Of a stretch of 64,000 nt of DNA, positions 11,123 through 64,000 are shown in pieces. This DNA comes from Dehalococcoidia bacterium. GTDB lineage: Bacteria > Chloroflexota > Dehalococcoidia > Lucifugimonadales > Australimonadaceae. Position 1 is the first letter of the stretch. Every line of letters starts with the position of its first letter. The notes under the pieces are model-generated. The model was not told the DNA's origin. It did no database searches and saw only the letters and a program-made list of their open reading frames with translations. The translations under genes were made by a program, and so were the position numbers. Location of the stretch: assembly GCA_034423175.1 (NCBI GenBank), contig DAOUJA010000034.1, positions 6,379-70,378 of the forward strand, in the 5' to 3' direction.

Positions 11123-11175
11123 CGTGCCCCACAGAAGCGGTCCGCGAACCGACCCTACGCGGAGAGGACAACAAC

Positions 11176-11574: not shown

Positions 11575-11581
11575 ACCCTAC

Positions 11582-11649: not shown

Positions 11650-11715
11650 CTTCGTCGGCTTGCGTTGCTACCACCATCTCCGCCATCCCGCCACCGCGCG
11701 GGCAGGCTGAAGCCG

Positions 11716-11877: not shown

Positions 11878-11882
11878 TCTGG

Positions 11883-12044: not shown

Positions 12045-12121
12045 GGTCTAACGCTTCCCTCCGCTGCCTTGAATCTCATGCGGAGAATAGCGCAGACGAA
12101 CTGACACTGCCAGGTACGCCC

Positions 12122-13474: not shown

Positions 13475-13583
13475 GGAGCGATGCTACCGCCGCGCCGCGT
13501 CCTTTGCCACAGCGGGGTTCCGGGCGCCTCCGCGATGGCGTTCCCGATGAGCGGAGCGGGCATTGCGAGGCGGGCGAACGCCG

Positions 13584-14870: not shown

Positions 14871-15175
14871 GGGATGTCCCTCCGTGGAAGTGCGTGGGAT
14901 TGTATATCCCTGGCCTCGAACCGGGTCGGCTGGATGGGCCCCCGCGCCCACGCACTCCCCTTCGCGGCGTAGTCATCACAGCGACACTGCTCTATTGCAG
15001 ACCTGAATCGCCTCCCCCATAATGAGGAACTACGCGTACAGCGCGCACCTGACCCTGTCGGACGAGCCGCAGGAAGATCGCTGCCCCCTCAGCGCAGAGC
15101 GAGGGGGCTCTTCATGTTAACCGGCAGCCCGTCATCCCGCTTTCGCGGGGACCCGGAGGCTTTGCCGTTAACGGG

Positions 15176-20033: not shown

Positions 20034-20132
20034 GGCTGGACTATCCCGGCATATATTGGGAAGCGACAGTCCTCCGCCCACCACATGTAGTGGTTGTGGC
20101 GGCGTCTCCCCGGTCAGCGCGAAAGGAGCGGT

Positions 20133-23051
<2,919 letters not shown>

Positions 23052-34347: not shown

Positions 34348-37300
34348 ATGGCGTCCGACAACGTCAGCCTGCTCCCGTTCCGTTGCCTCTCGCTCGACCT
34401 CGAAGTCCTGAAGGACGGCAGCCGCATCCGTGCCTTCGCCGGAGTGCGCTCGGACACCAATCGTTCTTTCTCCTTCTCAGGGACCGGGCACTCATGGGCT
34501 GATGCGTTCGTTAGACTGGACCGCTTTGCCGATGGGGTGGGCTTCCTGCTGGGCCACAACCTGATCGCTTTCGATCTGCCCCACCTGCGCGCTGTGAACC
34601 CAAACCTCCGGCTGCTGCGGCTGCCTGCGGTGGATACGCTCAGGCTGAATCCTCTGGCTTTCCCCCGCAACCCCTACCACCACTTGGTTAAACACTACCA
34701 GGATGGACAGATCAAACGTGGACGCGTCAACAATCCCGAACTGGATGCAAGACTGACGCTGCAAGTACTCGAGAACCAGTTGACAGCATTTCGCGACGCC
34801 CCACCTGGCCTTCTAGCCGCTTGGCACTGGCTGACCACGGTTGAGGACGGCACCGGGTTCGACAAGGTGTTCGGATCACTGCGGGGCTTGCCTCGACCGT
34901 CCAATGCCGAGGGGCACGATGCTATACAGGCACAACTGGAAGGGAACTCCTGCCGGACGCAGGCACGTGAGGTCATGGCGCGTCCGAATGAACATGGCTG
35001 GGCCCTCGCCTACGTGTTGGCTTGGTTGTCCGTATCGGGAGGCAATTCGGTCATGCCTCCCTGGGTGCGGTATCAATTCCCTGAAGCAGGCCAACTGGTG
35101 CGCCTGTTGCGGGACACGCCCTGCGCCGACATCGACTGCTTGTGGTGCGCCGAACGGCACGACGCGCGCAAGGAACTGGCACGCTGGTTCGGGTTCAGTG
35201 GATTCCGTCCTGAGCCTGCGGACGAAGCCGGACGCTCCATGCAGCAGTCCGTCGTAGAGGCTGGGATGGCGGGGGAGCACACACTGGCCATCCTGCCGAC
35301 CGGCGCGGGGAAATCGCTCTGCTATCAGGTTCCAGCGCTGTCCCGTTACGACAAGACCGGCGCATTGACGGTAATCATCTCGCCGCTGGTCGCCCTCATG
35401 GCCGACCAGGTGGCGGGCCTGGAGAAACGGGGCATCGATTCCTGCGTCACTATCAACAGCCTCTTATCCATGCCTGAGCGAGCCGACGCTCTTGACCGGG
35501 TGCGGCTGGGAGACGCCGGGCTCCTCATCATTTCACCTGAGCAGTTGCGCAGCGTTGCCGTGCGCCGCGTTCTGGCGCAAAGGGAGATAGGCACCTGGGT
35601 GCTGGACGAGGCACACTGCCTCTCCAAGTGGGGGCACGACTTCCGGCCGGACTACCGCTACGTCGGGCGGTTCATCCGCGAGCGGGCCGGAAACGAGACT
35701 GTGCCGCCGGTGTTGTGCCTGACTGCAACCGCCAAGCCAGACGTGCAGGCGGAGATTGTTGACTACTTCCAGAGAGAACTCGGAATCGCGCTCAAGGTCT
35801 ACAACGGCGGTACTGAGCGCGCCAACCTCGAATTTACGGTGATACGGACGAGCACCAGCGAGAAGTTCGAACATATCCACCAGATCATAGAGTCCGATCT
35901 GCCGGCGCATGAACCCGGCGGAGCGATCGTCTACTGCGCAACCCGGCGGCACGCTGAACGGGTCGCCGGGTTCCTGCGTGAAAAGGGAATCCAGGCAGAC
36001 TACTTCCACGGGACATTGCCACCGGAGACCAAGAAGAACGTTCAGGAGAGTTTCATCGAGGGCGGCCTGCGCGTCATCGCCGCCACCAACGCCTTCGGCA
36101 TGGGCATCGACAAGCCGGACATCCGCCTCGTGATTCACGCAGACATCCCCGGTTCTCTGGAGAACTACTTGCAGGAAGCGGGCAGGGCAGGGCGCGACCA
36201 GCAGGCAGCTCGCTGCGTACTGCTGTACACGATGGACGACGTGGAGCGGCAGTTCGGGATGTCGGCCCATTCGCGCCTCACACGGCGGGAAGTCCACGGC
36301 GTCCTGAAAGCGCTGCGTAATCTCAACAAGAGGAACCGCTCGAACGGCGAAGTGGTGGCCACATCGGGCGAGATACTCATTGGGGACGAAGACCACGAAT
36401 TCGAGCGCGATAAGGCGACTGACGATACGCGGGTGCGCACGGCAGTAGCATGGCTGGAAGAAGCGCAACTGCTGACACGCGAGGAGAACCGCGTGCAAGT
36501 GTTCCCATCTTCCCTGCGGGTGCGTTCTCTGCAAGAAGCAAACGCCAGGCTCGCCAAGGCGCGCGTAGGGGACGCCGGCCGCCGCCAATTGCTGAAAATC
36601 GCCGAAACGCTGTTCGAAGCGGACCCGGACGAAGGCATCTCAACCGACGAATTGATGTCCGCATCCGGCCTCACTCCCGAAGGAGTACGGAGCGCTCTCC
36701 ATGACCTTGAGCGGCTGGGCATCGCCGCCAACGATACGGCCCTGACCGCCTTCGTCCACGAGAGAGTGAAGGGCAATTCCCGGCAGCGCTTCGATGAGGC
36801 GGCGGAGCTGGAGCGCGCCATGGTCGACCTCTTGCGCGAGACCGCGCCCGATATGGGGATAGGTGAAACGTCCACGCTTTATCTCCGTCAGGCGAGCCAG
36901 CGGTTGAAGGACGACGGCTACAAGAATGCTCTGCCGGAACGCTTGCGCCGCATCGTCCGGAGCATCGCTGCAGACGGTCGTGGCGACGGCGGAGGTGGCG
37001 GCAGTCTCGGCCTGCGCGGGGTGAATCGTGACGCCGTCCAAGTGACACTGCAACGCGAGTGGGGAATATTGGAGAAAACCGCAGGGTTGCGCAGGGCCGC
37101 CGCAGGGCGGCTTCTAGCCCACCTGCGCGCCTGTCTCCCTGCCGGAAGCAGAGGCACGGATCTGCTGGCTGAGACAACCGTCGGAGACCTGCTGAAGGCG
37201 CTCACCTCGGACATGACGCTGATGCAGGAAGTCAGGGAACCCAACAAGTTGATGGATCGTGCGCTGCTGTGGCTGCACGAACAGGATGTGGTCCGCCTGA

Positions 37301-39456
37301 ACAAGGGTCTTGCCGTGTTCCGCCCGGCCATGACCATCCGACTGAAGCAAGAAAGGCGCGGCTTCGCCCGGACCGATTTCGAACCGCTGAATCTCCACTA
37401 CAACGAACAGACGCTCCAGATCCACGTGATGGCGGAATACGCAGTGCGGGGCCTGACAGCCATGGCCGATGCCCTGCGCATGACCGTGGATTACTTCAAC
37501 CTGCGCAAACGGGACTTCGAGCGCCGCTGGCTGCCGGAGCGAGAAAAAGAACTCTTCCGCCAGACCACCCCTGAATCATGGCAGGCCATCGTCGAGAGCC
37601 TGAACAACCCTGTGCAGCGCAGTGTCGTAGCGGACGAAAGGGAGCAGGCCAACGTGCTGGTGCTTGCCGGTCCCGGCTCCGGGAAGACGCGGGTGCTGGT
37701 GCACCGCATCGCCTACCTCGTGCGCGCGATGCGCGAGAACCCCCACTCTATCCTCGCTCTCGCGTACAACAGACATGCCGCCGTAGATATCCGGCGCCGT
37801 TTGGCGGAACTCATCGGCGACGACGCTCGCGGCGTGGTGGTGCTCACCTGCCACGCGCTCGCCATGAGTCTTGCCGGCGCGAGTTTCACAGGGCGTGCGA
37901 ATGACCTGGACGACGCCGAATTCAAAAAGATACTCAAGGAAGCGGTGTCCCTGTTGCGCGGGGAAGGACTGCCGCCCGAGGAAGTGGACGAACAGCGGAC
38001 GCGGTTGCTCGCAGGCTTCCGCTGGATACTGGTTGACGAGTACCAAGATGTCGGCCCCGACGAGTATGCGCTGATCTCGGCGCTGGCGGGCAGGACGCTC
38101 TCCGAAGAAGACGACAAACTGAGCCTCTTCGCGGTGGGCGACGACGACCAGAACATCTATACCTTCAAGGGCGCGTCGGTGCGGTTTATCCGGCAGTTCG
38201 AGAAGGACTACGCAGCCAAACCGGTGTTCCTCACCGACAACTACCGCTCCACCAGCCACATCATCGCGGCTGCAAACGCGATAATCGAACCGGCGAAGCA
38301 ACGGATGAAGAACGGGCATCCCATTCATGTAAACCAAGTGCGTAAGAAGGAACCGCCTGGTGGCGTGTGGGTTCAACGCGATGCGGTTGCGCAAGGCCGG
38401 GTTCAGACATTGCCGGTTGGGGATTCGCGAATCTCCCAGGCGCAGGCAGTCGTCGCCGAGTTTCAGCGACTATCCAGCCTGACACAGGATTGGGATTGGG
38501 CTTCCTGCGCCGTGATAGCGCGCGAATGGAGTTACTTGGACCCGGTGCGCAGCCTCTGCGAGATCAAGGGCATCCCCGTGCAGATGTCGAACGAGGACTT
38601 CTCGGGCATCTGGCGCCTGCGGGAAACGCAGGCTCTCCTGCAGTGGGTGCACGAGCGAGACTCCCGCTTGATAACGAGCGCGGAACTGAACGACTGGCTG
38701 GAAAGGCAAACCTACGGCTCTTGGAACGAACTGCTGCTCGAAGCCGTGGGCGAGTATGCACTGGAGACCGGCGGCGCGGAAACGCCGGTAGCACACTTCG
38801 TCGAGTGGCTGGCGGAATGGGCGCGGGAGGTACGCCGCCGTCAGCGCGGGTTATTGCTGACCACTGCTTATGGCGCCAAGGGTCTGGAGTTCGACCATGT
38901 CGCGGTGCTGGACGGAGGGTGGGAGCGCGTTGAATACAGGGATGCCGATTCCCAGCGCCGGTTGTACTACGTTGCGATGACTCGCGCCCGTCAGACGCTT
39001 ACCCTTGCCCGCTTCCCGAGGCCACACCCATTCCAGGACGCCTTGCCGGACAGCCCGGCAGTGCTACACAGGGATGAACCCTTGTCGCTCCCGGCCCCCG
39101 CGCCGGAACTCACACGCACTTACCGCCGCCTCAGTCTAGGGGACGTTGATTTGGGTTTCGCGGGCCGCAAACGTTCGGCCGACCGTGTCCACCGCGCCAT
39201 TGCCTCGCTTGCACCAAGCGATCCATTGACGGTTCGCGTTCAGTCACACCCCTGGGAGCTTGTGGATTCGACAAGCACAGTGGTGGGGCGACTCGCGCAT
39301 CGCTTCGAGCCCGATGCCGGTATGCGGTGCATCGCCGCCAGCGTCCTTGCGGTTGTCACCTGGAATCACGAGATTTCAAGCCCTGAGTACCAGAGTGGTA
39401 TGCAGTGTGAATCGTGGGAGGTCGTGGTGCCAGAACTGGTATTCGAGCCTGAGTAG
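34348..39456 (+). CDS. 1702-aa fusion: DnaQ-like 3'-5' exonuclease + RecQ-family helicase + ~450-aa unknown linker + UvrD/PcrA-like SF1 helicase + ~140-aa unknown C-terminal domain
   Basis: Exonuclease motifs: LSLDLEV, GHNLIAFDLPHL, NPELDARLT. RecQ motifs: LAILPTGAGKS, LDEAHCLSKWGHDFRPDY, ATNAFGMGIDKPDIRLVIHADIPGSLENYLQEAGRAGRD. UvrD motifs: VLAGPGSGKT, ILVDEYQDVGP, FAVGDDDQNIYTFKGA, LTDNYRST, TAYGAKGLEFDHV, YVAMTRAR. Confidence 0.9.
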   Translation: MASDNVSLLPFRCLSLDLEVLKDGSRIRAFAGVRSDTNRSFSFSGTGHSWADAFVRLDRFADGVGFLLGHNLIAFDLPHLRAVNPNLRLLRLPAVDTLRLNPLAFPRNPYHHLVKHYQDGQIKRGRVNNPELDARLTLQVLENQLTAFRDAPPGLLAAWHWLTTVEDGTGFDKVFGSLRGLPRPSNAEGHDAIQAQLEGNSCRTQAREVMARPNEHGWALAYVLAWLSVSGGNSVMPPWVRYQFPEAGQLVRLLRDTPCADIDCLWCAERHDARKELARWFGFSGFRPEPADEAGRSMQQSVVEAGMAGEHTLAILPTGAGKSLCYQVPALSRYDKTGALTVIISPLVALMADQVAGLEKRGIDSCVTINSLLSMPERADALDRVRLGDAGLLIISPEQLRSVAVRRVLAQREIGTWVLDEAHCLSKWGHDFRPDYRYVGRFIRERAGNETVPPVLCLTATAKPDVQAEIVDYFQRELGIALKVYNGGTERANLEFTVIRTSTSEKFEHIHQIIESDLPAHEPGGAIVYCATRRHAERVAGFLREKGIQADYFHGTLPPETKKNVQESFIEGGLRVIAATNAFGMGIDKPDIRLVIHADIPGSLENYLQEAGRAGRDQQAARCVLLYTMDDVERQFGMSAHSRLTRREVHGVLKALRNLNKRNRSNGEVVATSGEILIGDEDHEFERDKATDDTRVRTAVAWLEEAQLLTREENRVQVFPSSLRVRSLQEANARLAKARVGDAGRRQLLKIAETLFEADPDEGISTDELMSASGLTPEGVRSALHDLERLGIAANDTALTAFVHERVKGNSRQRFDEAAELERAMVDLLRETAPDMGIGETSTLYLRQASQRLKDDGYKNALPERLRRIVRSIAADGRGDGGGGGSLGLRGVNRDAVQVTLQREWGILEKTAGLRRAAAGRLLAHLRACLPAGSRGTDLLAETTVGDLLKALTSDMTLMQEVREPNKLMDRALLWLHEQDVVRLNKGLAVFRPAMTIRLKQERRGFARTDFEPLNLHYNEQTLQIHVMAEYAVRGLTAMADALRMTVDYFNLRKRDFERRWLPEREKELFRQTTPESWQAIVESLNNPVQRSVVADEREQANVLVLAGPGSGKTRVLVHRIAYLVRAMRENPHSILALAYNRHAAVDIRRRLAELIGDDARGVVVLTCHALAMSLAGASFTGRANDLDDAEFKKILKEAVSLLRGEGLPPEEVDEQRTRLLAGFRWILVDEYQDVGPDEYALISALAGRTLSEEDDKLSLFAVGDDDQNIYTFKGASVRFIRQFEKDYAAKPVFLTDNYRSTSHIIAAANAIIEPAKQRMKNGHPIHVNQVRKKEPPGGVWVQRDAVAQGRVQTLPVGDSRISQAQAVVAEFQRLSSLTQDWDWASCAVIAREWSYLDPVRSLCEIKGIPVQMSNEDFSGIWRLRETQALLQWVHERDSRLITSAELNDWLERQTYGSWNELLLEAVGEYALETGGAETPVAHFVEWLAEWAREVRRRQRGLLLTTAYGAKGLEFDHVAVLDGGWERVEYRDADSQRRLYYVAMTRARQTLTLARFPRPHPFQDALPDSPAVLHRDEPLSLPAPAPELTRTYRRLSLGDVDLGFAGRKRSADRVHRAIASLAPSDPLTVRVQSHPWELVDSTSTVVGRLAHRFEPDAGMRCIAASVLAVVTWNHEISSPEYQSGMQCESWEVVVPELVFEPE

Positions 39457-44500: not shown

Positions 44501-45772
44501 TCAGGCTGCGCCCACGTACATCTTCTGCATGAGGGCGTCCTGCCAGCGGACGCTGCCGGGCAGCACCTCCTCGATGGCGCGGATGTGATAGTAGGCGTCG
44601 TTCGCGCCGACAGGGGTCCCGCCGTCCTCGACCGTGCGGGTCGCCTGCATCAGCATCTTGCGGGCAGTGATGACGGCGCGGTCGGTCTGGCCGAGGTGCT
44701 CCTGGCTGCGGTCGACGATGCGTTTCATCGCTTCCTGCACCGCCCTGTCCTGCGCGTTGATGCCCTTGATGCCGGTGAACGTGTCCGTGCGCTGGAGCTC
44801 GCGGTCGATCAGCCAGTCGTTGGCCGGGTTGCGGTGGCTGCGCCACGTCGTCTGATCGACGTCGTCGGGGCCGTTGCCGGTGGCGAGCTCGTCGCGCTCG
44901 GCCTGGGTGAGCGGCTCGTCCAGCGTGTAGAACCAGTTCCAGACCATGGTGGTCTCGTCGTCCATGGGCACCCAGTGGTGTCCGGCGATCTTGAACTTGA
45001 ACCAGGAGCCGTCGTTGTTCAGCTGCGCCGCGCGTATCTGGACGTGGGGCATCACGTAGTGGTAGGTGCGGACGTAGTTCGCGTCCTCGCCGGGCAGGGG
45101 ACGGACCGACCCGTACCGGTAGCCGTATTCCGTGAGCTCGACGTCCAGCTTGGAGGCGGTCGCTTTGGCGCGCAGGCCGTCCAGTCCCGCCGCGCCGCCG
45201 GTGCCGAACTTCCGGTGGAGGAAGGACGAGTGAACGGAGTCTATGCCGCCCTCCAGCGCCTGCAGCCAGTTGCACTCCTCGATGACCTTGGAGGCGTGCC
45301 GGTGGGTCTGCGGCTGGCGCGTGAACTCGAACGAGGGCTCAGGCGGCGTCTGCTCCTTCGGCCCCATGTACGTCCAGATGACGCCGCCCAACTCCACGGT
45401 GGGATAGGCGGTGACGCGCACCTTGCGGCTGAAGTCGAACTGAGCGGGCTCGTTGGGCATGTCCACGCAGGCACCGTCCACGTCGAACTTCCAGCCGTGG
45501 TAGACGCAGCGGATGCCGTTCTCCTCGTTGCGGCCCAGCCAGAGGGACGTGAGGCGGTGGGGGCACCACTCGCTCATCAGTCCGACGCGGCCGGACGTGT
45601 CGCGGAAGGCGACGAGGTCCTCGCCGAGGATGCGCAGGCGCAGAGGGTCGCAGTCCGGGTGCGGCAGCTCGTGGGAGATGAGGACGGGCTGCCAGTATCG
45701 GCGCATGACCTCTCCCATCGGCGTGCCGGGCCCCACACGGGTGAGTCGTTCGTTGTCCTGGGTCGAAAGCAT
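44501..45772 (-). CDS. Rieske [2Fe-2S] non-heme iron oxygenase, alpha subunit-like
   Basis: Rieske motif CPHRLTSLWLGRNEENGIRCVYHGWKF. ATG at 45772 (MLSTQDNERLTRVGPGTPMG). Confidence 0.88.
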   Translation of the reverse strand: MLSTQDNERLTRVGPGTPMGEVMRRYWQPVLISHELPHPDCDPLRLRILGEDLVAFRDTSGRVGLMSEWCPHRLTSLWLGRNEENGIRCVYHGWKFDVDGACVDMPNEPAQFDFSRKVRVTAYPTVELGGVIWTYMGPKEQTPPEPSFEFTRQPQTHRHASKVIEECNWLQALEGGIDSVHSSFLHRKFGTGGAAGLDGLRAKATASKLDVELTEYGYRYGSVRPLPGEDANYVRTYHYVMPHVQIRAAQLNNDGSWFKFKIAGHHWVPMDDETTMVWNWFYTLDEPLTQAERDELATGNGPDDVDQTTWRSHRNPANDWLIDRELQRTDTFTGIKGINAQDRAVQEAMKRIVDRSQEHLGQTDRAVITARKMLMQATRTVEDGGTPVGANDAYYHIRAIEEVLPGSVRWQDALMQKMYVGAA

Positions 45773-45916
45773 GGTTGGCTTCCTCGCGTAGGTTGGTTTC
45801 GGATGGTTGTACGCCCCGCGGGGCGGGACTGTCAACGAGCCTACCTAGCCCGCCCGAGAGATGTTTCGACTCCGCCTCTGGCTACGCTCAACATGACAAG
45901 CCCCAACTCCGAGCGG

Positions 45917-47332
45917 CTACGCTACCCCCCCGCGCAGCAGGCGGAGGAATTCCGTCACGTCCGTCACGTCGTCGAGGCGCTCCGTCATGTCGATAACCTC
46001 GTCGACCGTCGCGTCGCTGAGCGGGGTGCCGGCGTGGACGGCGCACTCGCGGAACTTCTGGTGGCGCTGTGCGTCCGTCAGCGGGTTATCGCGGTGGCCC
46101 GGGGGAGCGTCCACGCGCTCAGAGAGCGTTTCGCCGCTCGCGAGCGTCACCTCCACGACGCCGGACTTGCCGAGCGACTCGTCGACCTCGTAGCCGGTGA
46201 CGTTGGCGATGCGCAGGGCGGCTTCCTCGAACAGTCCCTGCGGCGTGGGCTGGAGGTCCGCCAGCGTCACGCCGCCGGTGGTGAGCGCGCGCGCCGTCGC
46301 GAAGATGATCGAGTCCTCCGCCTCGACCGGCGCCTGCGGGTTGCGCCGAGTCTGCAACGGTTCGCAGAAGGTGCGGATGTGCGGCTCGCCGCGCAGCAGC
46401 ACGCGCGTCACCGCCGACGCGTCCGGCACGCGTGAGGCGCGCAGGTTCGACGCGGCCTCGATGAAGACGTGCGCGACGCCGGTGGTGGGCCACGGCTTGA
46501 TCCCCACGTTCAGCAGACGCCACTCCCCGCCGAGACCGTCGCTCATCGCGGAGCGGTCGAACACGCCGCCGTAGTAGGTGGGGAAGAAGCCGGCATCGCC
46601 CTCGAACGCGTCACAGTCGCCCAGCAGTCCTTCGCGCGCCAGGAGCACGCTCTGCATGCCGGCCTGGCAGGAGAACGCGGCGTAGACGGCCTTCGCGGGA
46701 CGCCCCTCGAGCACGGGCTGCCTCCCGCCGGACGCCTGCATGAACGCGAGGCCGAGCGCGCTGTGCGTCTCCAGCGGCGAGAGGCCGAGCATGCGCGAAC
46801 CGCTCATCGCGGCAGCGAGGCAGCCCGGCATCTGGGTCGGCTGCGGTCGGGACTCCGTGAAGGCGCCCACCCTGGCGGTGATGGCGATGCCGATGCGCGA
46901 CATCAGCTCCATGCCCGCCGCGAGAGCGGTCATGAACTCCCTGCCGGACGCGCCGCCGCGCAGATCCGCCGCCGAGAACGCTGTCGGCAGCGTCACCGGC
47001 CCCAGGTGGCCGGAGCCGACGGCGGTGGTGTCGTCGAAGTTGAGCGCGTGCGCCATGCCGCCGTTCAGCATCGCGGCGGCAGCGGCGGGCAGCCTGTCCG
47101 GCAGGCCGATGAGCGACGCCTCTTCCACGCCTCCCGCCTTGCGGGCCCACGCGAGCAGTTGCGGGATACCGATGCCGAGCGTGTTGGCCGCGAGGGATGT
47201 CGCGAGCGTGTCGAGCGTGATCGAGCGGACCGTGCGGCGTACGCTGTCCGGAAGGTCCTCGTACGTCAACCCCGCGCCGAACCGCGCCCACAGCGAGGTC
47301 AGCTCTTCCGCGCCATCGTTCCGTGTCGCCAT
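45917..47332 (-). CDS. MmgE/PrpD family protein (2-methylcitrate dehydratase-like)
   Basis: 471 aa. The N-terminal LTYEDLPDSVRRTVRSITLDTLA and the overall family pattern. Confidence 0.85.
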   Translation of the reverse strand: MATRNDGAEELTSLWARFGAGLTYEDLPDSVRRTVRSITLDTLATSLAANTLGIGIPQLLAWARKAGGVEEASLIGLPDRLPAAAAAMLNGGMAHALNFDDTTAVGSGHLGPVTLPTAFSAADLRGGASGREFMTALAAGMELMSRIGIAITARVGAFTESRPQPTQMPGCLAAAMSGSRMLGLSPLETHSALGLAFMQASGGRQPVLEGRPAKAVYAAFSCQAGMQSVLLAREGLLGDCDAFEGDAGFFPTYYGGVFDRSAMSDGLGGEWRLLNVGIKPWPTTGVAHVFIEAASNLRASRVPDASAVTRVLLRGEPHIRTFCEPLQTRRNPQAPVEAEDSIIFATARALTTGGVTLADLQPTPQGLFEEAALRIANVTGYEVDESLGKSGVVEVTLASGETLSERVDAPPGHRDNPLTDAQRHQKFRECAVHAGTPLSDATVDEVIDMTERLDDVTDVTEFLRLLRGGVA

Positions 47333-57151: not shown

Positions 57152-57344
57152 GTGCCGGATTCTACGTCATGCCCGGCAGGGTAAGCTTCATGGAGCTTGT
57201 CCGTGTGCGCTCGTGAGCGTTGCGGGCACTTGATGCCCGCCGTGCAGACTCTCGCTGGCAGTCGTGTCCGGGTAGTCGGTCGATGATGATAGCATTCGTG
57301 CCATGTCAGCCCCATGACCGCTGACGAAAGAGAGCATCGTTCCG

Positions 57345-58757
57345 TTGAACAGCACCGGTTCTCGGCACTATGACGCGGCGATAATTGGCGCTGGCCCAGT
57401 AGGTAGCCTGTGCGCACTCGCCTACGCGCGCAGGGGTGCCCGGGTAGCCCTGTTCGAACAGAACCCCACCGAACATCAAACAGGACTGAAGGGCGAGTGG
57501 CTGCATCCACCCGCCTCGCGGATACTGGAACAGACCGGGGTCCGTTTCGATTCGGAGGCCCACGCCACCAAAGGGTTCGTGGTGTTTCCGGAGGATGGCT
57601 CTGAGCCAATCCCGCTGACCTACCCGGACGGGTCGCACGGCCTGGTATGCCCGCACGAAACCCTCGTCTTGCGTCTGCGCGAGGCTGCCAATGACGAGCC
57701 CAACGTCGACCTCATACAGGCGCGGGCCTACCCGCTCCATGACGGCAGGGTCACCTACGGCCGGGACGGCACCCGGGAATCCGTGACCGCAGACCGGATC
57801 GTCGGCGCAGACGGCCGATCGTCCGCCGTGCTGCGAATGTTGGGGCTGACAACAAAGCCCACGGTCTGTTCGCGCATGATAGGAATCAGGGTGAACGGAG
57901 TGAAGTTGCCCGCGGACGACTACGGGCACATCTTCTGTGGCGGCCCCGGCCCCATATTCATGTACAGGTTGGGAGAGGACAGCGTTTGCGCCATTATGGA
58001 TATCCCGCGCGAATACTCGGGCCGTCACGCCGACGGCCTGTTGTTGAATTCGTATATCCCCTGGCTGCCGCCGGATATCAGATCGTTGTTCGTGGAAGCG
58101 GTGCGCAAGCGGCGCTTCAAGCGCGCCGGAAACATGATCAGACCGCGCATCTCGTACGGTAACTCGCGTTTCGTTGTTATCGGCGATGCGGTCGGGCACT
58201 ACCATCCGATGACGGCGGTGGGACTGACCCTCGGTTTCGGCGATGCCGTGGCGCTGGCGGAGAGCGAGGACTTCAGCGGTTTCGTCGCCAGGCGCTTCGA
58301 GGAGGTCCGCGCGCCCGAGATGCTTGCCATGGGGTTCTATGAGGTATTTGCCGATCATCGGGCCGAGGCAGTGGCGCTCAGGCATGCGGTCTATCGGATA
58401 TGGAGGAAGGGCGGTGGGAACACCGATCGCAGCATCCGTTTGCTCGCTTGTGAAGATACGTCAGAGGCCAGTCTGGGCTTCATCGGCGGCATAGTGGTTG
58501 CCCTGGCTGTTGCGAGAGCGATTCCGATGTCCATGAGCCCACGCGCCTGGCGCCGGGCAGGCGGCATCGTTCATCGCCTTGCCCTTCGCATCGGATGGTT
58601 CATGAGGGCCGTTTGCGAACTACGCAGATTGAGAGCCAGAGGCGAAGTTCGGCACGAGCGATTCCATGGCAGCCTGGAGCGTGCCTTTCTGACCTCCACG
58701 CCACCCCAGGGCCGCTTCAGCCAACCGCGTGACCAGGAGCATGCCGGTGCACCCTGA
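57345..58757 (+). CDS. FAD-dependent monooxygenase, squalene epoxidase-like
   Basis: IIGAGPVG. GEWLHPPASRIL resembles GELLQPGG. VGADGRSS. GDAVGHYHPMTAVGLT resembles GDAxNMRHPLTGGGMT of squalene epoxidases. TTG start. Confidence 0.78.
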   Translation: MNSTGSRHYDAAIIGAGPVGSLCALAYARRGARVALFEQNPTEHQTGLKGEWLHPPASRILEQTGVRFDSEAHATKGFVVFPEDGSEPIPLTYPDGSHGLVCPHETLVLRLREAANDEPNVDLIQARAYPLHDGRVTYGRDGTRESVTADRIVGADGRSSAVLRMLGLTTKPTVCSRMIGIRVNGVKLPADDYGHIFCGGPGPIFMYRLGEDSVCAIMDIPREYSGRHADGLLLNSYIPWLPPDIRSLFVEAVRKRRFKRAGNMIRPRISYGNSRFVVIGDAVGHYHPMTAVGLTLGFGDAVALAESEDFSGFVARRFEEVRAPEMLAMGFYEVFADHRAEAVALRHAVYRIWRKGGGNTDRSIRLLACEDTSEASLGFIGGIVVALAVARAIPMSMSPRAWRRAGGIVHRLALRIGWFMRAVCELRRLRARGEVRHERFHGSLERAFLTSTPPQGRFSQPRDQEHAGAP

Positions 58758-60681
58758 TGCCCATTCCGCCTTGAGGATGGCGACCGAGGGCTTGCTGCAC
58801 CTCCAGGATGAGGATGGCAGCTTTGAGGGTGAAGTGGTGTGGTGCCCCATGCTCTCCGCGCAGTACGTGCTGCTGCACCATATCCTCGGCCGTCCGCTCG
58901 AGCCCGCCCGCCGCCGCGGCGTGTTGCGCTACTTCCAGCGGTCCCGCCTGGAAGGAGGCCTGTGGAGCCTCCACGAGCACGAACCGCCCAGCCTGTTCGT
59001 CACTGCACTGGTCTACGTCTCGGCCAGATTGCTCGGCGTCGAGCGGGAGGACCCGTTGATCGAACCGGCTCGGCGGTTCCTGCAGAAAGAGGGAGTCCTC
59101 GGGATCCCCACCTGGGGTAAGTTCTGGCTGGCGCTTCTCAATCTCTACGACTGGCGCGGCGTCAATGCCATCCTGCCGGAGGTGTGGGGCCTGCCCCGTT
59201 GGATGCCGTTGCATCCTTCGCATTGGTACTGCCATACGCGGCTCATCTACATGGGAATGGCATCCCTTTACGCGCATCGCTTCCAGGCGCCCGTAACGCC
59301 CCAGATCGCCTCCATAAGAGAAGAGCTGTACCCCCAGGGGTTTGCCGACGCCGATTTCGCTGCGAGCCGCAATCGCCTGCGCGACGCCGACCTGCACACC
59401 AGGCCAAGCGTGTGGCTCCGCGCCGGGTTCGGTCTCGCACGCCTCTTCGATCGGTTGCACAGCAAGCGCCTGCGCGCCCGCTACCTGGAGGCGATCGTCC
59501 GCAGCATCAGATGGGAGCTTCAGACCACCAACCATACGAGCATATCTCCCGTCAGCGGGATACTGAACATCCTTGTCCTGTGGCTGCGCGACCCCGAAGA
59601 TGCCGACGGACTCCGCGCCCTCGCACAGTTGGACCGCTGGATCTGGGAAGACGACGAGGGAGGGTTGCGCGTCTCCGGGGCCAGAAGCGCCTCCTGGGAT
59701 ACTGCCTTCGCCTTGCAAGCGCTGTCGACGGCGTCCGAACTCGACGGGGTCCGCGATGCGCTCCGCAGCGGGGCGAACTACCTTCGCGGACAGCAGATCG
59801 GCATCAGCTTCGAAGGGTATCGAGAGGCCTATCGGAACGACCCCAACGGCGGCTGGTGTTTCGCCGCGGGGTGGCACGGCTGGCCGGTGACCGACTGCAC
59901 CGCCGAGGCGGTCCTTGGGCTTCTCTCTGCCGACAGGGACGCAGCGGACGAGACGGCACTGGGCGACGCGGTCCGGTTCATGCTGCGGGGCCAGAATCGA
60001 GATGGCGGTTTCGGCACGTACGAAGCGCAGCGCAGCGTGGTTGGCCTCGAGTGGCTGAACCCGGCCGAGATGTTCGGGGACTCCATGACGGAGCACTCCT
60101 ATGTCGAGTGCACCGCCTCTTGTCTTGCGGCCCTGGCGGCTTGCGGAGAGCGCTTCCCCCGGGTCATCGGCCAGGCGGAAACCAGGGCCATCTCACGGGC
60201 CGACGCATGGCTACGCCGCGCCCAGGAGCGAGACGGCTCCTGGCGCGGGGTATGGGGCGTTCAGTTCATCTATGGCACGTTCTTCGGGATAAGGGGTCTG
60301 CTTGCCGCTGGCGCTCGTCCTGACGATCCAGCCCTGCGCTCGGCCTGCCAGTGGCTACTGGACCGTCAACGGGAAGACGGGGGATGGGGCGAGCACTACC
60401 GGGGTTGCTACACCGGCCGGTACGTCGCGCACGAAGAGGGCCAGGTCATCCAGACGGCGTGGGCAATGATCGCGCTCCTCGAGGCGGGCGCCACGGACTG
60501 GAACGCGATCACGCGGGGCGCTCAGTTCCTCGCAGGCATGCAGAGGGAGGACGGGACATGGCCCAGGCAGGACATGGCCGGGATATTCTTTCGCACCGCA
60601 CTCCTGGACTACGCGCTGTATCGCCAGTATTTTCCCCTGCATGCTCTCGGTCTCTACGCGCAGCGCCGCCTGGCAGACTAG
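58741..60681 (+). CDS. Oxidosqualene cyclase (lanosterol/cycloartenol synthase family)
   Basis: Catalytic motif WHGWPVTDCTAE (DCTAE, not the DxDDTA of squalene-hopene cyclases). QW-type repeats (RDGSWRGVWG, EDGGWGE, EDGTWPR). AGGAG lies before ATG 58741. It overlaps the epoxidase gene end. Confidence 0.88.
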   Translation: MPVHPDAHSALRMATEGLLHLQDEDGSFEGEVVWCPMLSAQYVLLHHILGRPLEPARRRGVLRYFQRSRLEGGLWSLHEHEPPSLFVTALVYVSARLLGVEREDPLIEPARRFLQKEGVLGIPTWGKFWLALLNLYDWRGVNAILPEVWGLPRWMPLHPSHWYCHTRLIYMGMASLYAHRFQAPVTPQIASIREELYPQGFADADFAASRNRLRDADLHTRPSVWLRAGFGLARLFDRLHSKRLRARYLEAIVRSIRWELQTTNHTSISPVSGILNILVLWLRDPEDADGLRALAQLDRWIWEDDEGGLRVSGARSASWDTAFALQALSTASELDGVRDALRSGANYLRGQQIGISFEGYREAYRNDPNGGWCFAAGWHGWPVTDCTAEAVLGLLSADRDAADETALGDAVRFMLRGQNRDGGFGTYEAQRSVVGLEWLNPAEMFGDSMTEHSYVECTASCLAALAACGERFPRVIGQAETRAISRADAWLRRAQERDGSWRGVWGVQFIYGTFFGIRGLLAAGARPDDPALRSACQWLLDRQREDGGWGEHYRGCYTGRYVAHEEGQVIQTAWAMIALLEAGATDWNAITRGAQFLAGMQREDGTWPRQDMAGIFFRTALLDYALYRQYFPLHALGLYAQRRLAD

Positions 60682-60693
60682 GCGCGGGCGGCC

Positions 60694-62730
60694 TCAAACC
60701 CGGACCTCATGCCGCCTTTCCTTGATGACGAACTTGACTTTCTTGCTGAGGGACAGCGTCGGAAAGGGGCTGATGCGCAGTCTGGCGTCCGGTGGCGACA
60801 GATCGAACGTGAAGTGGTGCGCCAGCATCAACACGTTGAGAGCGATGTGCATCTCGGCCCAGCGGCTGCCTATGCACTTGTGGGTGCCCAGGCCGAAGGG
60901 CGCATAGCCCGGACTGAAGTGCTCGTTGCGCGGCGGCAGATAGCGGTCGATGTCAAACGTGAAGGGGTCCGGAAAAGCGTCATCCATGTAGTGCGAGGCG
61001 CTCTGGGCGATCACCACACGCGCGCGCAGTGGGAGTTCATAGCCCTGGACGTTGCAGGTGTTCATGACATTGCGCATCGTGAAGGCGGTAATGGGTGTCA
61101 GCCGCAGGGCCTCCATCAGCACGCGGTGTGTGACGTCGATCCTGTCCGGCCTCAGGTCTTCACCGGCAGGGTCGCCATCGGCGAACAGTGCGTCGGCCTC
61201 CGCCTGCACACGCCTGTAGATGTCGGGGTTCGATGCCAGGTAGAAGAAGATGAAGCTGATCATGTCAGCGAGGTACATGCCGGTCAGCAGCGCGGTCCCG
61301 AGCGGAAAGCCGAAGTCGGTTTCCGGGAGGAACTGCGGGTCGTTGGCATGGAGGGCGAAGAAGCCGTCGACGACGTCCGGGGGGGCGCCGAGGCGCTGGG
61401 CCGGGGTGTGGTTGGCCTCGATGCGCTCGACTATCTGTTGGTTCAGCTTCGCACGGCGCTTCATCTTCGGCGTCTTCAACATGAACTTGGGTAAGAGGCC
61501 CGCGACGTGAGTGAGGAGCGCGCGCTCCTTGAATTGCAGGAGGTCTTCGACCACCTCCTGGGTCTCCTGGCTGACCAGGAGCGGGGACATCTGTGCATTC
61601 ATGTACAGCCGGAGCACCGACCTGGCATGGATGACGTCGCCGGCAGCCCACGACGACAAGTGCCGGCGCGCGTTGTGATAGACCTCGTCGAGGCGGCGGA
61701 CCAAGGTATCAGGCGAGTATGAGGACCTCAGAGCCTTGCGAAAGCGGAAATGGTCGGCGCCATCGGTGGAATGTATGGTGCGGGAGACGCCGTACGCCGC
61801 CTCGATGCTGGCCAGATACTCCTTGGAGCGCAGGTACAAGCGGCCATTCCGGTGGATCCAGCGGTTCACTTCGGTCCCGGCGAGGAAGATGTAGGACTTC
61901 TTCGAAAACGGGGGGCGCAGCTCAAACACCGGTCCATACTGCTTGGCGAGGTCGGCAAAGAGGGCCGGGAGGTTGCCGGACCTTACGTGGCGATTGAACA
62001 GCATCTTGCGTAGAGAGATGCGCGGGATCTTCTTCGTGAGGGGCGAGCGCCGCAGGTGGAACCCGGTGATGTTGCTACTCACCGCCTCGCTGATGGAGCG
62101 GGCGATGACGTCCATCTGGCAGACCAACTTGACGCGCTGCCCGGCCTCCTCGTCGAGGGGCAGGATAGAGTGAATGACATTGCAGGCGTTGAGGAGGGCG
62201 ATCGTAATGACGTCGCGGGGGTCAGGGATATCGCCCCCGAGGATGACGCCGTGGATGCGCGTTCTGATGAAGGCAACTCCGTCGCTGTTGCGGGCATCCG
62301 CGCGTGCCTCTATCTCATAAGCGGTGCGCGCCAAGGTCCAGAAGTCACCCTCGTGGTACTCCAGGAACTGGAGCCGGACCAGGTCGTTGAGCACGAGGTC
62401 GACGATCGTTTCCGCTTGTGGGACGAGCCGCTCGATCCAGTACTGCGTGCTGTGTTGTTCCGGCTCGCCGGCGATCTCCTCCAGGATGGGGTCCAGGATG
62501 GGTGAGCCGGTCGGAGTTCTGTCGTTGAGGAACAGGGATTCTGTGTCGGTGTCGATGCGAAATCGGAGGGAAAGTTCTGCCAGCACGGCCCCGATGATGG
62601 TGCAATTGAGGCTCCAGCCCGGCACCTGGTGAAAATAGCCGCTTTCCTCATTGAGGAGCATCAGCACCAGCTCTTCAGGCAGGGAGAGAGAATGGTGGTT
62701 GATCGTGCTCGAAGCTGAACTCGTCATCAC
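60694..62730 (-). CDS. Fusion protein: N-terminal GPP34/GOLPH3-like domain plus a cytochrome P450
   Basis: aa 15-215: LPEELVLMLLNEESGYF...IIGAVLAELSLRFRI...PILDPILEEI (GPP34 pattern). aa 250-678: P450 with ExxR (EALR) and heme loop FGLGTHKCIG. Confidence 0.88.
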   Translation of the reverse strand: MMTSSASSTINHHSLSLPEELVLMLLNEESGYFHQVPGWSLNCTIIGAVLAELSLRFRIDTDTESLFLNDRTPTGSPILDPILEEIAGEPEQHSTQYWIERLVPQAETIVDLVLNDLVRLQFLEYHEGDFWTLARTAYEIEARADARNSDGVAFIRTRIHGVILGGDIPDPRDVITIALLNACNVIHSILPLDEEAGQRVKLVCQMDVIARSISEAVSSNITGFHLRRSPLTKKIPRISLRKMLFNRHVRSGNLPALFADLAKQYGPVFELRPPFSKKSYIFLAGTEVNRWIHRNGRLYLRSKEYLASIEAAYGVSRTIHSTDGADHFRFRKALRSSYSPDTLVRRLDEVYHNARRHLSSWAAGDVIHARSVLRLYMNAQMSPLLVSQETQEVVEDLLQFKERALLTHVAGLLPKFMLKTPKMKRRAKLNQQIVERIEANHTPAQRLGAPPDVVDGFFALHANDPQFLPETDFGFPLGTALLTGMYLADMISFIFFYLASNPDIYRRVQAEADALFADGDPAGEDLRPDRIDVTHRVLMEALRLTPITAFTMRNVMNTCNVQGYELPLRARVVIAQSASHYMDDAFPDPFTFDIDRYLPPRNEHFSPGYAPFGLGTHKCIGSRWAEMHIALNVLMLAHHFTFDLSPPDARLRISPFPTLSLSKKVKFVIKERRHEVRV

Positions 62731-64000
62731 TACGACCCTTCCTGTTGCCGTCTGTATATCGCCTCGATTTCCTCGTCGAGCGTGATCGACCAGGTTTCCA
62801 CCATCGAGCGCAGCCGCATATTCTGGTACGCGCCCCAGATCGTCATAGCAGAGGGCACCAGCAGCACTGACAGGATCAGCGAATAGGCAATCGTAATCAC
62901 CACCGTGAAGCCGAACTGCTGTAGCGCAGGGACCGGCGAGAGGATCAACACGCCGATCCCGCCGCCCGTGGTCAGGGCAGAACCCAGGAGGGCAGAGCCG
63001 GTCGTTTTCAGGGTGCGGACCGCCGCTATCTGGGGATTGCGAAGGTGGCTGTACTCCTCCCGGTATCTATGGATGATATGTATCGTGTAATCCACGCCGA
63101 TCCCGATCGAGAGCGCCGTGATGGTTGCAGTTACGATGGTGTAGGGGATCCCGAGCAGCGCCAGCGTGCCGAGTATCCAGATCAGGACGAGCACGATAGG
63201 CCCGACGGCGATGAAGGCCAGCATCGGTTGACGGAGTGTCGCCCAGAAGAACACGAACAGGATGCCGAGGGCCACGGCGATCGTAGCCGCTATCGCTTCC
63301 GTTTGACGGCTCGTCATCTCTTCCGTCACCGTAACCGAGATAACGCTTCCCGAAGCAACCGTGACGGCATCATCTTCACCGAACCAGAGCCCTTCGATCT
63401 CTCCCTGCAGGACCTTCGTTTGATCCGGATCGTTCGTGGAGGCCGGGAACTGCAGCAGGAACGCATCGATGCCCTGCGGATCGTTGACCAGCAGACGCGC
63501 GGCGGCAGGGTCTCTCGCCTCGAGCCTGTCCAGGAATTCCTGCATCAGCACTGGATCGAAATGCACCCCGGACGTGGCTTCTTCGAAGAGCGCGGCGAGT
63601 TCCGGGTCATACTTATCCCCGGGCTCGCCGGAGTCGTCGGTCCAGTCCTGCACGAAGTACTCGAAAGAAGCCTGGATCGGTCCTGACGCCGCCTGCGGCC
63701 GTTTCCATTCGTCCTCGAAAGAGGTCGTCAGATCGTGCAGGCTCACCAGTGTCCGGGTCTCCGTGGCCTCTGCACGCAGGAGCACATTGGCGATCTCCGA
63801 TGAACCGCCGATGGCAGCATCCAGTGTCTCCCAGTCATCCGCGACGCTCCCGCCACTGGGAAGAAGGTCCAGTATGCTGAACCGCGCTTCGATCTGCGTC
63901 GCCGCGCCCCCCAGTACCATAGACAGCGCCAGTATGGCGACGAGATAGGGCATGGGTCTACGCGTGACGCTTCCCCCCACCAGTTCCGCGGCCCGGTCGA
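62730..64000 (-). CDS. MMPL/RND-family transporter (HpnN-like), C-terminal half; the gene continues past the window end
   Basis: TM segment, ~200-aa soluble loop, then 5 TM segments containing LSIGIGVDYTIHIIHRY. The frame is open to position 64000. Its stop overlaps the P450 start by 1 nt. Confidence 0.8.
   Translation of the reverse strand, partial: DRAAELVGGSVTRRPMPYLVAILALSMVLGGAATQIEARFSILDLLPSGGSVADDWETLDAAIGGSSEIANVLLRAEATETRTLVSLHDLTTSFEDEWKRPQAASGPIQASFEYFVQDWTDDSGEPGDKYDPELAALFEEATSGVHFDPVLMQEFLDRLEARDPAAARLLVNDPQGIDAFLLQFPASTNDPDQTKVLQGEIEGLWFGEDDAVTVASGSVISVTVTEEMTSRQTEAIAATIAVALGILFVFFWATLRQPMLAFIAVGPIVLVLIWILGTLALLGIPYTIVTATITALSIGIGVDYTIHIIHRYREEYSHLRNPQIAAVRTLKTTGSALLGSALTTGGGIGVLILSPVPALQQFGFTVVITIAYSLILSVLLVPSAMTIWGAYQNMRLRSMVETWSITLDEEIEAIYRRQQEGS

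Follow-up and report, generated by a model that had tools for sequence, protein, structure and literature searches.

The squalene epoxidase (SE) and oxidosqualene cyclase (OSC) genes of the window, which is the whole analyzed stretch of 64,000 nucleotides of DNA, are part of a four-gene sterol cassette; cassettes of this kind are known from previous reports on sponge-associated bacteria. The best explanation of the locus, which we regard as likely, is a sterol cassette composed of a squalene epoxidase, a lanosterol-type oxidosqualene cyclase, a cytochrome P450 fusion protein, and a transporter of the RND family. The first-pass annotation described a two-gene module; the identities of its genes hold, but its extent does not, since the unit comprises four genes and reaches beyond the end of the annotated region and of the window. 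The features of the cassette are listed below in window coordinates.

57313..57344, no strand: left edge of the shared block and short region upstream of the epoxidase gene, from blastn against L002
57345..58757, forward strand: squalene epoxidase (squalene monooxygenase), FAD-dependent, 470 aa; Pfam SE and FAD_binding_3
57387-57404, forward strand: GxGxxG motif of the epoxidase
57492-57512, forward strand: GEWLHPP motif of the epoxidase
57804-57824, forward strand: GADG motif of the epoxidase
58182-58229, forward strand: GDAxxxxHPxxxxG motif of the epoxidase (GDAVGHYHPMTAVGLT)
58729..60681, forward strand: oxidosqualene cyclase, lanosterol-synthase type, 650 aa (644 aa from 58747); TIGR03463, 1W6K, and neighbor-joining tree
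59887..59907, forward strand: catalytic-acid motif V-T-D-C-T-A-E, equivalent to human V453-S454-D455-C456; alignment to 1W6K and 1GSZ
60694..62730, reverse strand: GPP34 (GOLPH3-like)-cytochrome P450 fusion, 677 aa; Pfam GPP34 E=7e-29, p450 E=1e-32
about 60745-61971, reverse strand: P450 domain of the fusion; Pfam
60868-60897, reverse strand: heme-Cys loop FGLGTHKCIG
about 62077-62679, reverse strand: GPP34 domain, N-terminal in the fusion; Pfam
62730..64000, reverse strand: C-terminal half of the RND transporter (HAE3/MMPL type) with a sterol-sensing-like domain; Pfam MMPL, Sterol-sensing, and Patched SSD

The epoxidase and cyclase genes are co-oriented and overlap, as the first-pass annotation had stated. 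They are in different reading frames, and the open reading frames have exactly the positions given above. The motifs that it named, GEWLHPP, the GDAVGHYHPMTAVGLT segment, and VTDCTAE, were all found. The overlap is 29 nucleotides when the cyclase start is taken from the longest open reading frame and 11 nucleotides when it is taken from the public gene call for the contig, which places it at 58747 (protein P0001, 644 aa). The stop codons of the cyclase and P450 genes are separated by 12 nucleotides, and the stop codon of the RND gene abuts the start of the P450 gene (TAGTGATG). The cassette is organized as two convergent, tightly packed pairs of genes. The complete RND protein has 822 residues, of which the N-terminal 406 are encoded past the window end.

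The four genes form a block of approximately 7.9 kb that extends from 57313 to about 65197 of the window, corresponding to positions 8567-16451 of the contig (locus L001). In a blastn comparison with a Dehalococcoidia chromosome (L002), the block has a DNA identity of 89%, and the similarity is confined to the four genes. The flanks of the two loci are unrelated apart from a single match of 179 nucleotides and 70% identity, positioned on opposite sides of the cassette. The same four genes are present in rearranged order in loci L005, L007, L010, and L013. All four are under purifying selection, with dN/dS of 0.17-0.32 (0.17 for the cyclase and 0.19-0.32 for the epoxidase).

The relatives of the cyclase share 71-92% identity and form one tight clade from metagenome-assembled genomes (MAGs) whose labels cover ten or more phyla or classes of bacteria, including Dehalococcoidia, Nitrospirales, Binatia, Gamma- and Alphaproteobacteria, Acidimicrobiales, Thermoanaerobaculia, and others. 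Several of these MAGs have sponge-derived names. The epoxidase and cyclase form a single open reading frame of approximately 1110-1300 residues (1114-1137 as called) in 60 of the 81 related loci, and this fusion of the orthologues, together with the overlap of the genes in the window, links the two enzymes functionally. The split corresponds to a frame change inside a linker of 7-18 residues, and two frames are also used in L002-L019. Fused-type loci mostly carry CYP51, ERG24, SdmA/B, and a sterol methyltransferase (SMT) alongside. In contrast, tblastn searches with fused-type queries detected no ERG24, CYP51, SdmA, SdmB, or SMT, either in the window or in the 10 kb around the genes in L001-L019, and no candidate for squalene synthase is present among the conserved neighbors or the annotated genes of the window. 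The GPP34-P450 gene adjoins the cyclase gene in 18 of the 19 split-type loci and in about 21 of the 62 fused-type ones. The RND gene is a neighbor in 15 of the 19 split-type loci; in the remaining four, the contig is short or truncated. The Chloroflexota variant of the cluster is characterized by split genes, no demethylation genes nearby, and the constant presence of the P450 fusion and the transporter.

Two alpha/alpha-barrel squalene-cyclase domains (PF13249, residues 17-309, and PF13243, residues 320-644) span the cyclase over its full length and match the Pfam families SQHop_cyclase_N and SQHop_cyclase_C with E=9e-50 and E=2e-56, respectively, values that rule out a chance match. The score of the cyclase with the oxidosqualene cyclase model TIGR03463 (osq_cycl; EC 5.4.99.7/8) is 725 bits, under the trusted cut-off of 851, versus 280 bits with the hopene cyclase model; the general squalene/oxidosqualene cyclase model TIGR01787 is passed with 509 bits against a cut-off of 323. 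The match to human lanosterol synthase (1W6K) has E=4e-132 and 37% identity over 655 columns, and that to squalene-hopene cyclase (SHC) E=4e-53. In the catalytic column, the sequence VTDCTAE of the window protein is aligned with VSDCTAE of human lanosterol synthase and DVDDTA of the SHC from A. acidocaldarius, which agrees with the earlier claim of an oxidosqualene cyclase signature in place of DxDDTA. A neighbor-joining tree, calculated without bootstrap from three solved structures as references and leaving out Methylococcus, Gemmata, and myxobacterial sequences, places the window cyclase as a sister to the human and plant enzymes with SHC as the outgroup. Thus, the HMM scores, matches to solved structures, catalytic residues, and tree all put the protein on the oxidosqualene cyclase side and not within SHCs.

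The cyclase shares with the human enzyme the catalytic Asp-Cys motif (D455 and C456 in human numbering), the cysteine partner C533, the His/Tyr base (H232 and Y503), and the cation-stabilizing aromatic residues W387, F444, W581, F696, and Y704. T381 and C449 are replaced by alanine and histidine, and the column of Y98 contains valine, at a position where the alignment is uncertain. Valine at position 453 goes with lanosterol, not cycloartenol, as the product in tested bacteria (Wei 2016, PMC4919349), and Mohanty 2020 (PMC7074536) applied the same rule to the fused homologue MsbE. V453 predicts lanosterol as the product of the window cyclase. With A/H/V at positions 381/449/453, the enzyme departs from the canonical triads for both lanosterol and cycloartenol, so that V453 is the only one of the three residues behind this prediction.

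The flavoprotein was described in the first-pass annotation as squalene-epoxidase-like, and the family and structure matches bear this out. It contains the motifs of an FAD Rossmann fold and an SE domain (PF08491; EC 1.14.14.17), which is matched with 79 bits and E=4e-22 (cut-off 20.1 bits), in addition to FAD_binding_3. Human squalene monooxygenase SQLE (6C6N) is its best solved relative, with E=1e-21 over residues 9-411 and about 25% identity; the next best match, with 2e-8, is 13 orders of magnitude weaker. Families of the UbiH/UbiF type top the NCBIfam list because NCBIfam has no squalene-epoxidase model, and the UbiH-type scores are all far below the cut-offs (63 versus 225 bits). The protein is thus closer to squalene monooxygenase than to UbiH, PHBH, or further group-A flavin monooxygenases. 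Over its whole length, the epoxidase can be aligned with the N-terminal half of fused SE-OSC proteins, and its orthologues, with 47-58% identity, are physically fused to the cyclase in most related loci. Its C-terminal tail is amphipathic or hydrophobic. The FAD motifs are common to the window protein and human SQLE, whereas the active-site Tyr195 of the human enzyme is replaced by Phe in the window protein and all aligned relatives. The eukaryotic N-terminal extensions of the human epoxidase and cyclase are absent in the bacterial proteins.

The GPP34-P450 fusion was considered as a divergent CYP51 that stands in for the missing demethylase, and this was rejected. The similarity of its P450 domain to CYP51 of M. 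capsulatus is low (77 bits, compared with 343 bits for the true CYP51 of fused-type clusters), and the fusion occurs together with a true CYP51 in at least 12 loci; it is therefore not CYP51. The AlphaFold2 model of the fusion has a pLDDT of 76.6, and its Foldseek neighbors CYP51, CYP46A1, and CYP120A1 all have E of about 1e-13, which does not discriminate among sterol and terpenoid P450s. The I-helix of the P450 lacks the usual acid-alcohol pair, and its chemistry may therefore be atypical. Since a distant GPP34-P450 (38% identity) is located in a non-sterol context, the fusion as such is not specific for sterols. The GPP34 domain may serve in membrane or lipid targeting; its alignment to GOLPH3/Vps74 is weak (E about 0.04-0.1), and the phosphoinositide (PI4P)-binding residues of these proteins do not line up in it. 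A literature search combining GPP34, P450, and sterol found no paper.

The RND transporter belongs, by its best assignment, to the generic HAE3/MMPL family. The full-length protein scores 197 bits with TIGR00921 HAE3 (cut-off 352). Its matches to the HpnN, Sterol-sensing, and Patched SSD models are significant though weak, and it is far under the equivalog cut-offs of HpnN (75 versus 752 bits) and BstA (32 versus 1400 bits). As a member of the RND superfamily, the protein resembles the lipid transporters HpnN (hopanoids) and BstA (sterols) and the sterol-sensing-domain proteins Patched and NPC1, and its gene lies beside one for cyclic-triterpenoid synthesis. The work of Zhai et al. 2024 (PMC10942540) provides a precedent for a sterol transporter of the RND type. 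As the host is presumably a member of Chloroflexota with a monoderm envelope, no outer-membrane delivery partners would be expected.

The cluster type and its horizontal transfer have been published (Mohanty 2020, PMC7074536; Kelly 2022, PMC9531527; Brown 2023, PMC10070321). The earlier description of the pathway as rare and patchy in bacteria understates current knowledge, because earlier papers already cover this gene family and the way it has spread among sponge symbionts. The closest of these systems are the msb locus of a gammaproteobacterial symbiont of Melophlus (PMC7074536) and the Ircinia steroid clusters (PMC9531527). The window cyclase falls in their clade, with 71-78% identity to fused-type loci that have the gene set of these two papers, the epoxidase is of the same family, and the occurrence in MAGs from many phyla including Dehalococcoidia matches. 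The evidence for horizontal transfer also agrees, as does dN/dS, which is 0.17 both for lanosterol synthase (LSS) in Kelly 2022 and for the window cyclase. In the published clusters, the epoxidase is fused to the cyclase (MsbE), whereas the window has split, overlapping genes. The published clusters are defined by the triad ERG24-CYP51-LSS in one operon (Kelly 2022), which in most cases has SdmA/SdmB on its upstream side and SMT or squalene synthase on its downstream side; in the 64 kb of the window, the cyclase gene has none of these partners. Conversely, the obligate GPP34-P450 and RND transporter of the window are not mentioned in the available portions of Mohanty 2020 and Kelly 2022.

Methylococcus capsulatus has a lanosterol synthase and a separate epoxidase (PMC4919349, PMC10070321), which constitute a minimal sterol pathway, as in the window. 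Sponge-metagenome cyclases were placed in the all-bacterial Group 1 (Brown 2023, PMC10070321), and V453 as the lanosterol-type indicator is common to Group 1 cyclases and the window cyclase. Methylococcus adds CYP51-ferredoxin, SdmA/B, and the BstABC transporters, whereas the window encodes a P450 of another family and an RND protein that is only distantly similar to BstA.

The window is probably a chromosomal piece of a member of Chloroflexota, similar to Dehalococcoidia/SAR202 and of the kind found in marine sponges, that carries the sterol cassette. The best named matches of GyrA (20094-23051) are in Chloroflexi, Dehalococcoidia, and SAR202, and the remainder of the window contains housekeeping genes. 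The genomes with the closest GyrA differ from those with the closest cassette, a comparison limited by clustering and database coverage; this is only suggestive of a patchy distribution of the cassette within Chloroflexota. The drop in G+C that had been claimed from about 57.3 kb is real (63.2% for 57313-64000 versus 67.6% for the rest of the window) but modest, and similarly low dips occur at 30-31, 34-40, and 48-49 kb. GC3 of the four genes is 0.74-0.83, whereas 38 other genes average 0.895 (sd 0.047), so that the four have z values between -1.3 and -3.3; like G+C, GC3 singles out the cassette. However, its codon-usage distance of 0.17-0.22 is not anomalous relative to the background of 0.197 ± 0.041. 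Among the relatives, G+C of the cyclase gene keeps to 0.60-0.71, while that of the flanks varies from 0.51 to 0.72. The horizontal acquisition proposed in the first-pass annotation is supported more strongly by the comparative data than by G+C. The 64-kb window contains no tRNA genes and no integrase or transposase, and the cassette edges have no meaningful direct or inverted repeats. The sole repeat candidate, an 18-nucleotide inverted pair within an amidohydrolase gene approximately 0.7 kb outside the left block edge, is probably due to chance. Matches to promoters and terminators do not exceed shuffled expectation.

We infer the substrates and products, as well as what the P450 and the transporter do. 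The epoxidase would convert squalene to (3S)-2,3-oxidosqualene using O2 and reductant. The Asp of VTDCTAE would protonate the epoxide, and the cyclization would yield a tetracyclic protosterol, most likely lanosterol. The P450 probably oxidizes the protosterol, and export of the lipid from the cytoplasmic membrane is the probable function of the transporter. Because genes for C-14 and C-4 demethylation (CYP51, ERG24, SdmA/B), SMT, and squalene synthase are absent nearby, the pathway may stop at a 4,4,14-trimethyl sterol, possibly modified by the P450, or the remaining steps may be encoded elsewhere in the genome. A broader proposal, which we offer tentatively, is that the split SE and OSC, GPP34-P450, and RND genes form a self-contained, horizontally exchanged module to make, oxidize, and export a protosterol, distinct from the ERG24-CYP51-LSS cluster. 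The GPP34-anchored P450 family might then perform a new bacterial sterol oxidation, and the RND pump might deliver the product to the cell surface or the sponge host.

It is also conceivable, although improbable, that the cyclase belongs to the oxidosqualene cyclase family but makes something other than a membrane sterol. Candidate products are a triterpenol, of the arborane type or another, and the aglycone of a specialized metabolite such as a norlanostane saponin, which would be tailored by the P450 and exported by the RND protein. The mixed A/H/V triad fits such a product, as does the fact that the cyclase is accompanied by a tailoring-type P450 and an exporter instead of demethylation enzymes, and a bacterial homologue of oxidosqualene cyclases reportedly makes arborinols. 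Mohanty 2020 (PMC7074536) proposed that the sarasinoside core derives from the fused homologue of the Melophlus symbiont. However, the cyclase resembles lanosterol synthases in V453 and in the deprotonation dyad H232/Y503, no glycosyltransferases are encoded nearby, and in fused-type clusters the cyclase clade is linked to CYP51, ERG24, SdmA/B, and SMT, which act on lanosterol-type sterols. Membrane-sterol synthesis by the cassette is also preferred over a main role in handling sterols of the sponge host, in which the RND protein and GPP34-P450 would take up or alter exogenous sterols, with little contribution from the epoxidase and cyclase. We consider this very unlikely, as purifying selection on the epoxidase and cyclase is as strong as on the other two genes, both enzymes are kept in every related locus, and the four genes move as one block. 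Consistent with host-sterol handling are the separate, convergent transcription unit of the RND and P450 genes, the occurrence of the fusion without the cyclase in other bacteria, and the sponge-derived names of the MAGs of relatives, since the surrounding tissue is presumably rich in sterols.

A hopanoid module of a UbiH-like aromatic hydroxylase and a squalene-hopene cyclase, or sponge DNA mis-assembled into a bacterial contig, is refuted by the HMM scores, alignments, tree, and loci of the relatives, leaving it a negligible probability. The prominence of UbiH/UbiF-type families in the NCBIfam list and the eukaryotic origin of the best solved relatives of the cyclase could have suggested these explanations. 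However, the UbiH-type scores are far under the cut-off, the DxDD motif is absent, and the SHC scores are less than half of the OSC scores. The overlapping genes have no introns, their neighbors on the 72.5-kb contig are bacterial, and the identical arrangement is found in independently assembled bacterial chromosomes.

Bacterial sterol synthesis bears on the reading of sterane biomarkers and on the origin of the eukaryotic pathway, and sponge symbionts are central to the dispute about 24-isopropylcholestane. The presence of SE and OSC genes in sponge symbionts has already been published, and the locus adds nothing to that basic fact. What it delineates is a less-described, compact Chloroflexota variant, in which the only constant partners are the GPP34-P450 fusion and the sterol-sensing-like RND transporter. 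These two proteins could be new components of sterol modification and sterol trafficking. Characterization of the GPP34-P450 would inform the whole family, because the fusion accompanies about a third of the classical clusters, in several phyla.

The proteins read by the first-pass annotation as a squalene epoxidase (SE) and an oxidosqualene cyclase (OSC) are encoded, as it claimed, by two co-oriented, overlapping open reading frames, and the motifs quoted for both were all found in place. Together with two genes on the opposite strand they form a four-gene cassette:

57345..58757, + strand: SE flavoprotein, 470 aa
58729..60681, + strand: OSC, 650 aa in the longest open reading frame
Directly 3' of the OSC gene, - strand: fusion of an N-terminal GPP34 (GOLPH3-like) domain and a C-terminal cytochrome P450, 677 aa
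Upstream of the P450 gene, - strand: RND transporter of the HAE3/MMPL type, with sterol-sensing and Patched domain matches

The SE and OSC genes lie in different frames and overlap by 11–29 nt depending on the cyclase start, because the public gene call (ENA ERZ23495130, scaffold_1125, 72.5 kb) begins the cyclase at 58747 (644 aa) instead of 58729. The OSC and GPP34-P450 genes are convergent, with stop codons 12 nt apart, and the stop of the RND gene abuts the P450 start at the junction TAGTGATG. The full-length RND protein has 822 aa, and its N-terminal half is encoded past the window end.

The cyclase contains both squalene-cyclase domains and scores 725 bits with the 2,3-oxidosqualene cyclase model, below the trusted cut-off of 851, versus 280 bits with the hopene cyclase model. 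Its closest solved relative is human lanosterol synthase (E=4e-132, 37% identity, full length), whereas the squalene-hopene cyclase (SHC) of A. acidocaldarius reaches only E=4e-53. The motif VTDCTAE, previously read as an OSC-type catalytic-acid motif, indeed aligns with human VSDCTAE (D455) and SHC DVDDTA. Counterparts of human C456, C533, H232, Y503, W387, F444, W581, F696, and Y704 are retained in the alignments. In a neighbor-joining tree, the cyclase and all its close relatives are sister to human and plant OSCs, with SHC as outgroup. Position 453 (human numbering) is valine, a residue that fully correlated with lanosterol, not cycloartenol, in the bacteria that Wei et al. (PMC4919349) tested. 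The assignment of lanosterol as the product is nevertheless provisional, since Ala381 and His449 match neither canonical triad.

For the flavoprotein, the Pfam squalene-epoxidase domain gives 79 bits, and the closest solved relative is human squalene monooxygenase (E=1e-21; second match 2e-8). Matches to UbiH-type NCBIfam models are all far under cut-off, which upholds the reading as SE. The strongest evidence for its predicted function is gene fusion of the Rosetta-stone kind: the SE and OSC orthologues are joined in a single reading frame of ~1110–1300 aa (1114–1137 aa as called) in 60 of 81 related loci. The SE parts of these fused loci are 47–58% identical to the window SE, which aligns across the entire N-terminal half of the fused protein, linker included. 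The split of the window pair corresponds to a frame change within the linker of 7–18 residues.

The edges of the cassette are defined by L002, a Dehalococcoidia chromosome (OZ244813.1), which shares 89% DNA identity with the source contig only from window position 57313 to ~65197. The common block comprises exactly the four cassette genes, and the flanks are unrelated. The same genes occur in other relatives in varied order and orientation, and all four have dN/dS values of 0.17–0.32 against two relatives. The amidohydrolase and MFS genes upstream are not conserved partners of the cassette, which is marked by neither a tRNA nor a flanking repeat nor a mobility gene. In L002 (6031–8394) and four further loci (L005, L007, L018, and L019) the cassette adjoins a full-length hybrid regulator of 787 aa (GAF-HisKA-HATPase-REC-OmpR). 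Just beyond the window end, at 16483–16680 of the source contig, a 65-aa OmpR-type winged-helix fragment lies by the RND gene as a remnant of such a regulator. The regulator may be a cassette-associated gene that has decayed in this genome.

The cassette exists in two architectures. The split type, with separate SE and OSC genes, comprises L001–L019 as well as L067 and L072. Cyclases of L001–L019 are 82–92% identical to that of the window; of these loci, only L004, on a 5-kb contig, lacks the GPP34-P450 (65–86% identity). The RND transporter (72–85%) occurs in 15 of the 19, and the four loci without it lie on short or truncated contigs. No CYP51, ERG24, SdmA, SdmB, or SMT gene was found within 10 kb in L001–L019 or in the 64-kb window. 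The fused type contains SdmB-like and SdmA-like (NF052579, 410 bits) genes, ERG24, CYP51, SE-OSC, and often SMT, and its CYP51 is bona fide, scoring 343 bits with the CYP51 of M. capsulatus. A GPP34-P450 homologue (30–66% identity) is also present in about 21 of the 62 loci of this type, and a related RND transporter in ~15. An intermediate architecture is found in L054 (Tepidiformaceae, 3315–11935), where fused SE-OSC accompanies GPP34-P450 (66%) and RND (73%) without CYP51; L067 and L072 show the reverse, split genes with CYP51 upstream. SE and OSC seem to have undergone fusion or fission on more than one occasion.

The GPP34-P450 was rejected as a CYP51, with only 77 bits. Its co-occurrence with CYP51 argues that it would perform an additional step and not replace the demethylase. 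The heme-cysteine loop, ExxR, and PERF-like motifs are invariant, and the I-helix lacks the usual acid-alcohol pair. The AF2 model (pLDDT 76.6, pTM 0.72) has CYP51, CYP46A1, CYP120A1, and CYP184A1 as near-equal structural neighbors. The fusion is an old architecture with a wide distribution, and at least 50 representatives with less than 50% identity match over the full length. The family is also broader than sterol clusters. A distant member, P0365 (38% identity; contig L082, 10001–12028), is encoded amid genes for TonB receptors and polysaccharide lyases and has no sterol gene in its vicinity. A literature search for GPP34, P450, and sterol together found no paper.

The general finding is already known from sponge symbionts. 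Mohanty et al. (2020, PMC7074536) describe a Melophlus symbiont with the fused SE/cyclase MsbE, SdmA/B-like genes, a sterol reductase, and CYP51. Kelly et al. (2022, PMC9531527) report that 115 of 537 Ircinia MAGs, from ten phyla including Dehalococcoidia, contain ERG24-CYP51-LSS clusters, whose gene trees disagree with the species tree and whose omega values are 0.13–0.26. Brown et al. (2023, PMC10070321) showed the activity of SMTs from such clusters and assigned OSCs of sponge metagenomes to bacterial Group 1. No description of a split, demethylase-less cassette with the P450 fusion and RND transporter was found in the literature.

The window is chromosomal Chloroflexota DNA. It carries gyrA, aspartokinase, homoserine kinase-like, mnmA, ndk, and rnhB genes, and its GyrA matches Chloroflexi, Dehalococcoidia, and SAR202 proteins (top identity 87%). 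The lower G+C claimed from about 57.3 kb is present and modest, 63.2% in 57313–64000 versus 67.6% in the remaining window. GC3 of the cassette genes is 0.74–0.83, versus 0.895 ± 0.047 in 38 other window genes; equally low G+C dips occur elsewhere, and codon-usage distance is unremarkable.

The second compositionally odd region, at 34–40 kb (G+C 61–63%), contains a gene (34348–39456, + strand; GC3 0.75) for a 1702-aa protein joining DEAD/RecQ-like and UvrD-type helicases. It matches the PADLOC models DpdF (384 bits), PsyrT (300 bits), and GajB (164 bits), and may belong to a defence island. An RCC1-repeat protein with eukaryote-like repeats is encoded at 13584–14951 (- strand; low GC3, 0.75); eukaryote-like repeat proteins of this sort are reportedly enriched in sponge symbionts. 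At 44501–47332 (- strand), a LigXa-type Rieske oxygenase adjoins an MmgE/PrpD-family protein; the oxygenase was rejected as an SdmA orthologue (weak tblastn match of its Rieske domain to SdmA, 28% over 90 aa). An artefact of assembly or sequencing is the most likely origin of the poly-C run (17222–17286) in which the source contig ends, outside the window.

A genome scan identified 80 loci with cyclases 71–92% identical to that of the window. The MAG titles name Dehalococcoidia (closest), Tepidiformaceae, Nitrospirales, Binatia, Gamma- and Alphaproteobacteria, Acidimicrobiales, Thermoanaerobaculia, Nitrospinaceae, and others, with sponge-derived names such as Spongia_Bin9, lac_sponge TsSOB, Ca. 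Porisulfidus, Ca. Poriferihabitaceae, and Ca. Spongiisociaceae. This high identity across phyla, and the narrow G+C of the cyclase genes (0.60–0.71) despite host flanks of 0.51–0.72, points to horizontal spread of the cyclase, in line with the acquisition proposed by the first-pass annotation. A split-type four-gene cassette with an 84% identical cyclase is present in L010 (OZ243930.1, 3938–11935), a complete chromosome titled Ca. Spongiisociaceae, a family of Acidimicrobiia, not Chloroflexota, in the NCBI taxonomy. If this label is right, the window-type cassette itself has crossed phyla.

The evidence, which comes from the genes, favors the original interpretation of SE and OSC as a sterol-synthesis pair. 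It is likely that SE would convert squalene to oxidosqualene, which OSC would cyclize to lanosterol or a close isomer. Much more tentatively, conserved linkage, the sole basis for the later steps, suggests that the P450 would oxidize the sterol product and that the RND protein would mediate its transport.
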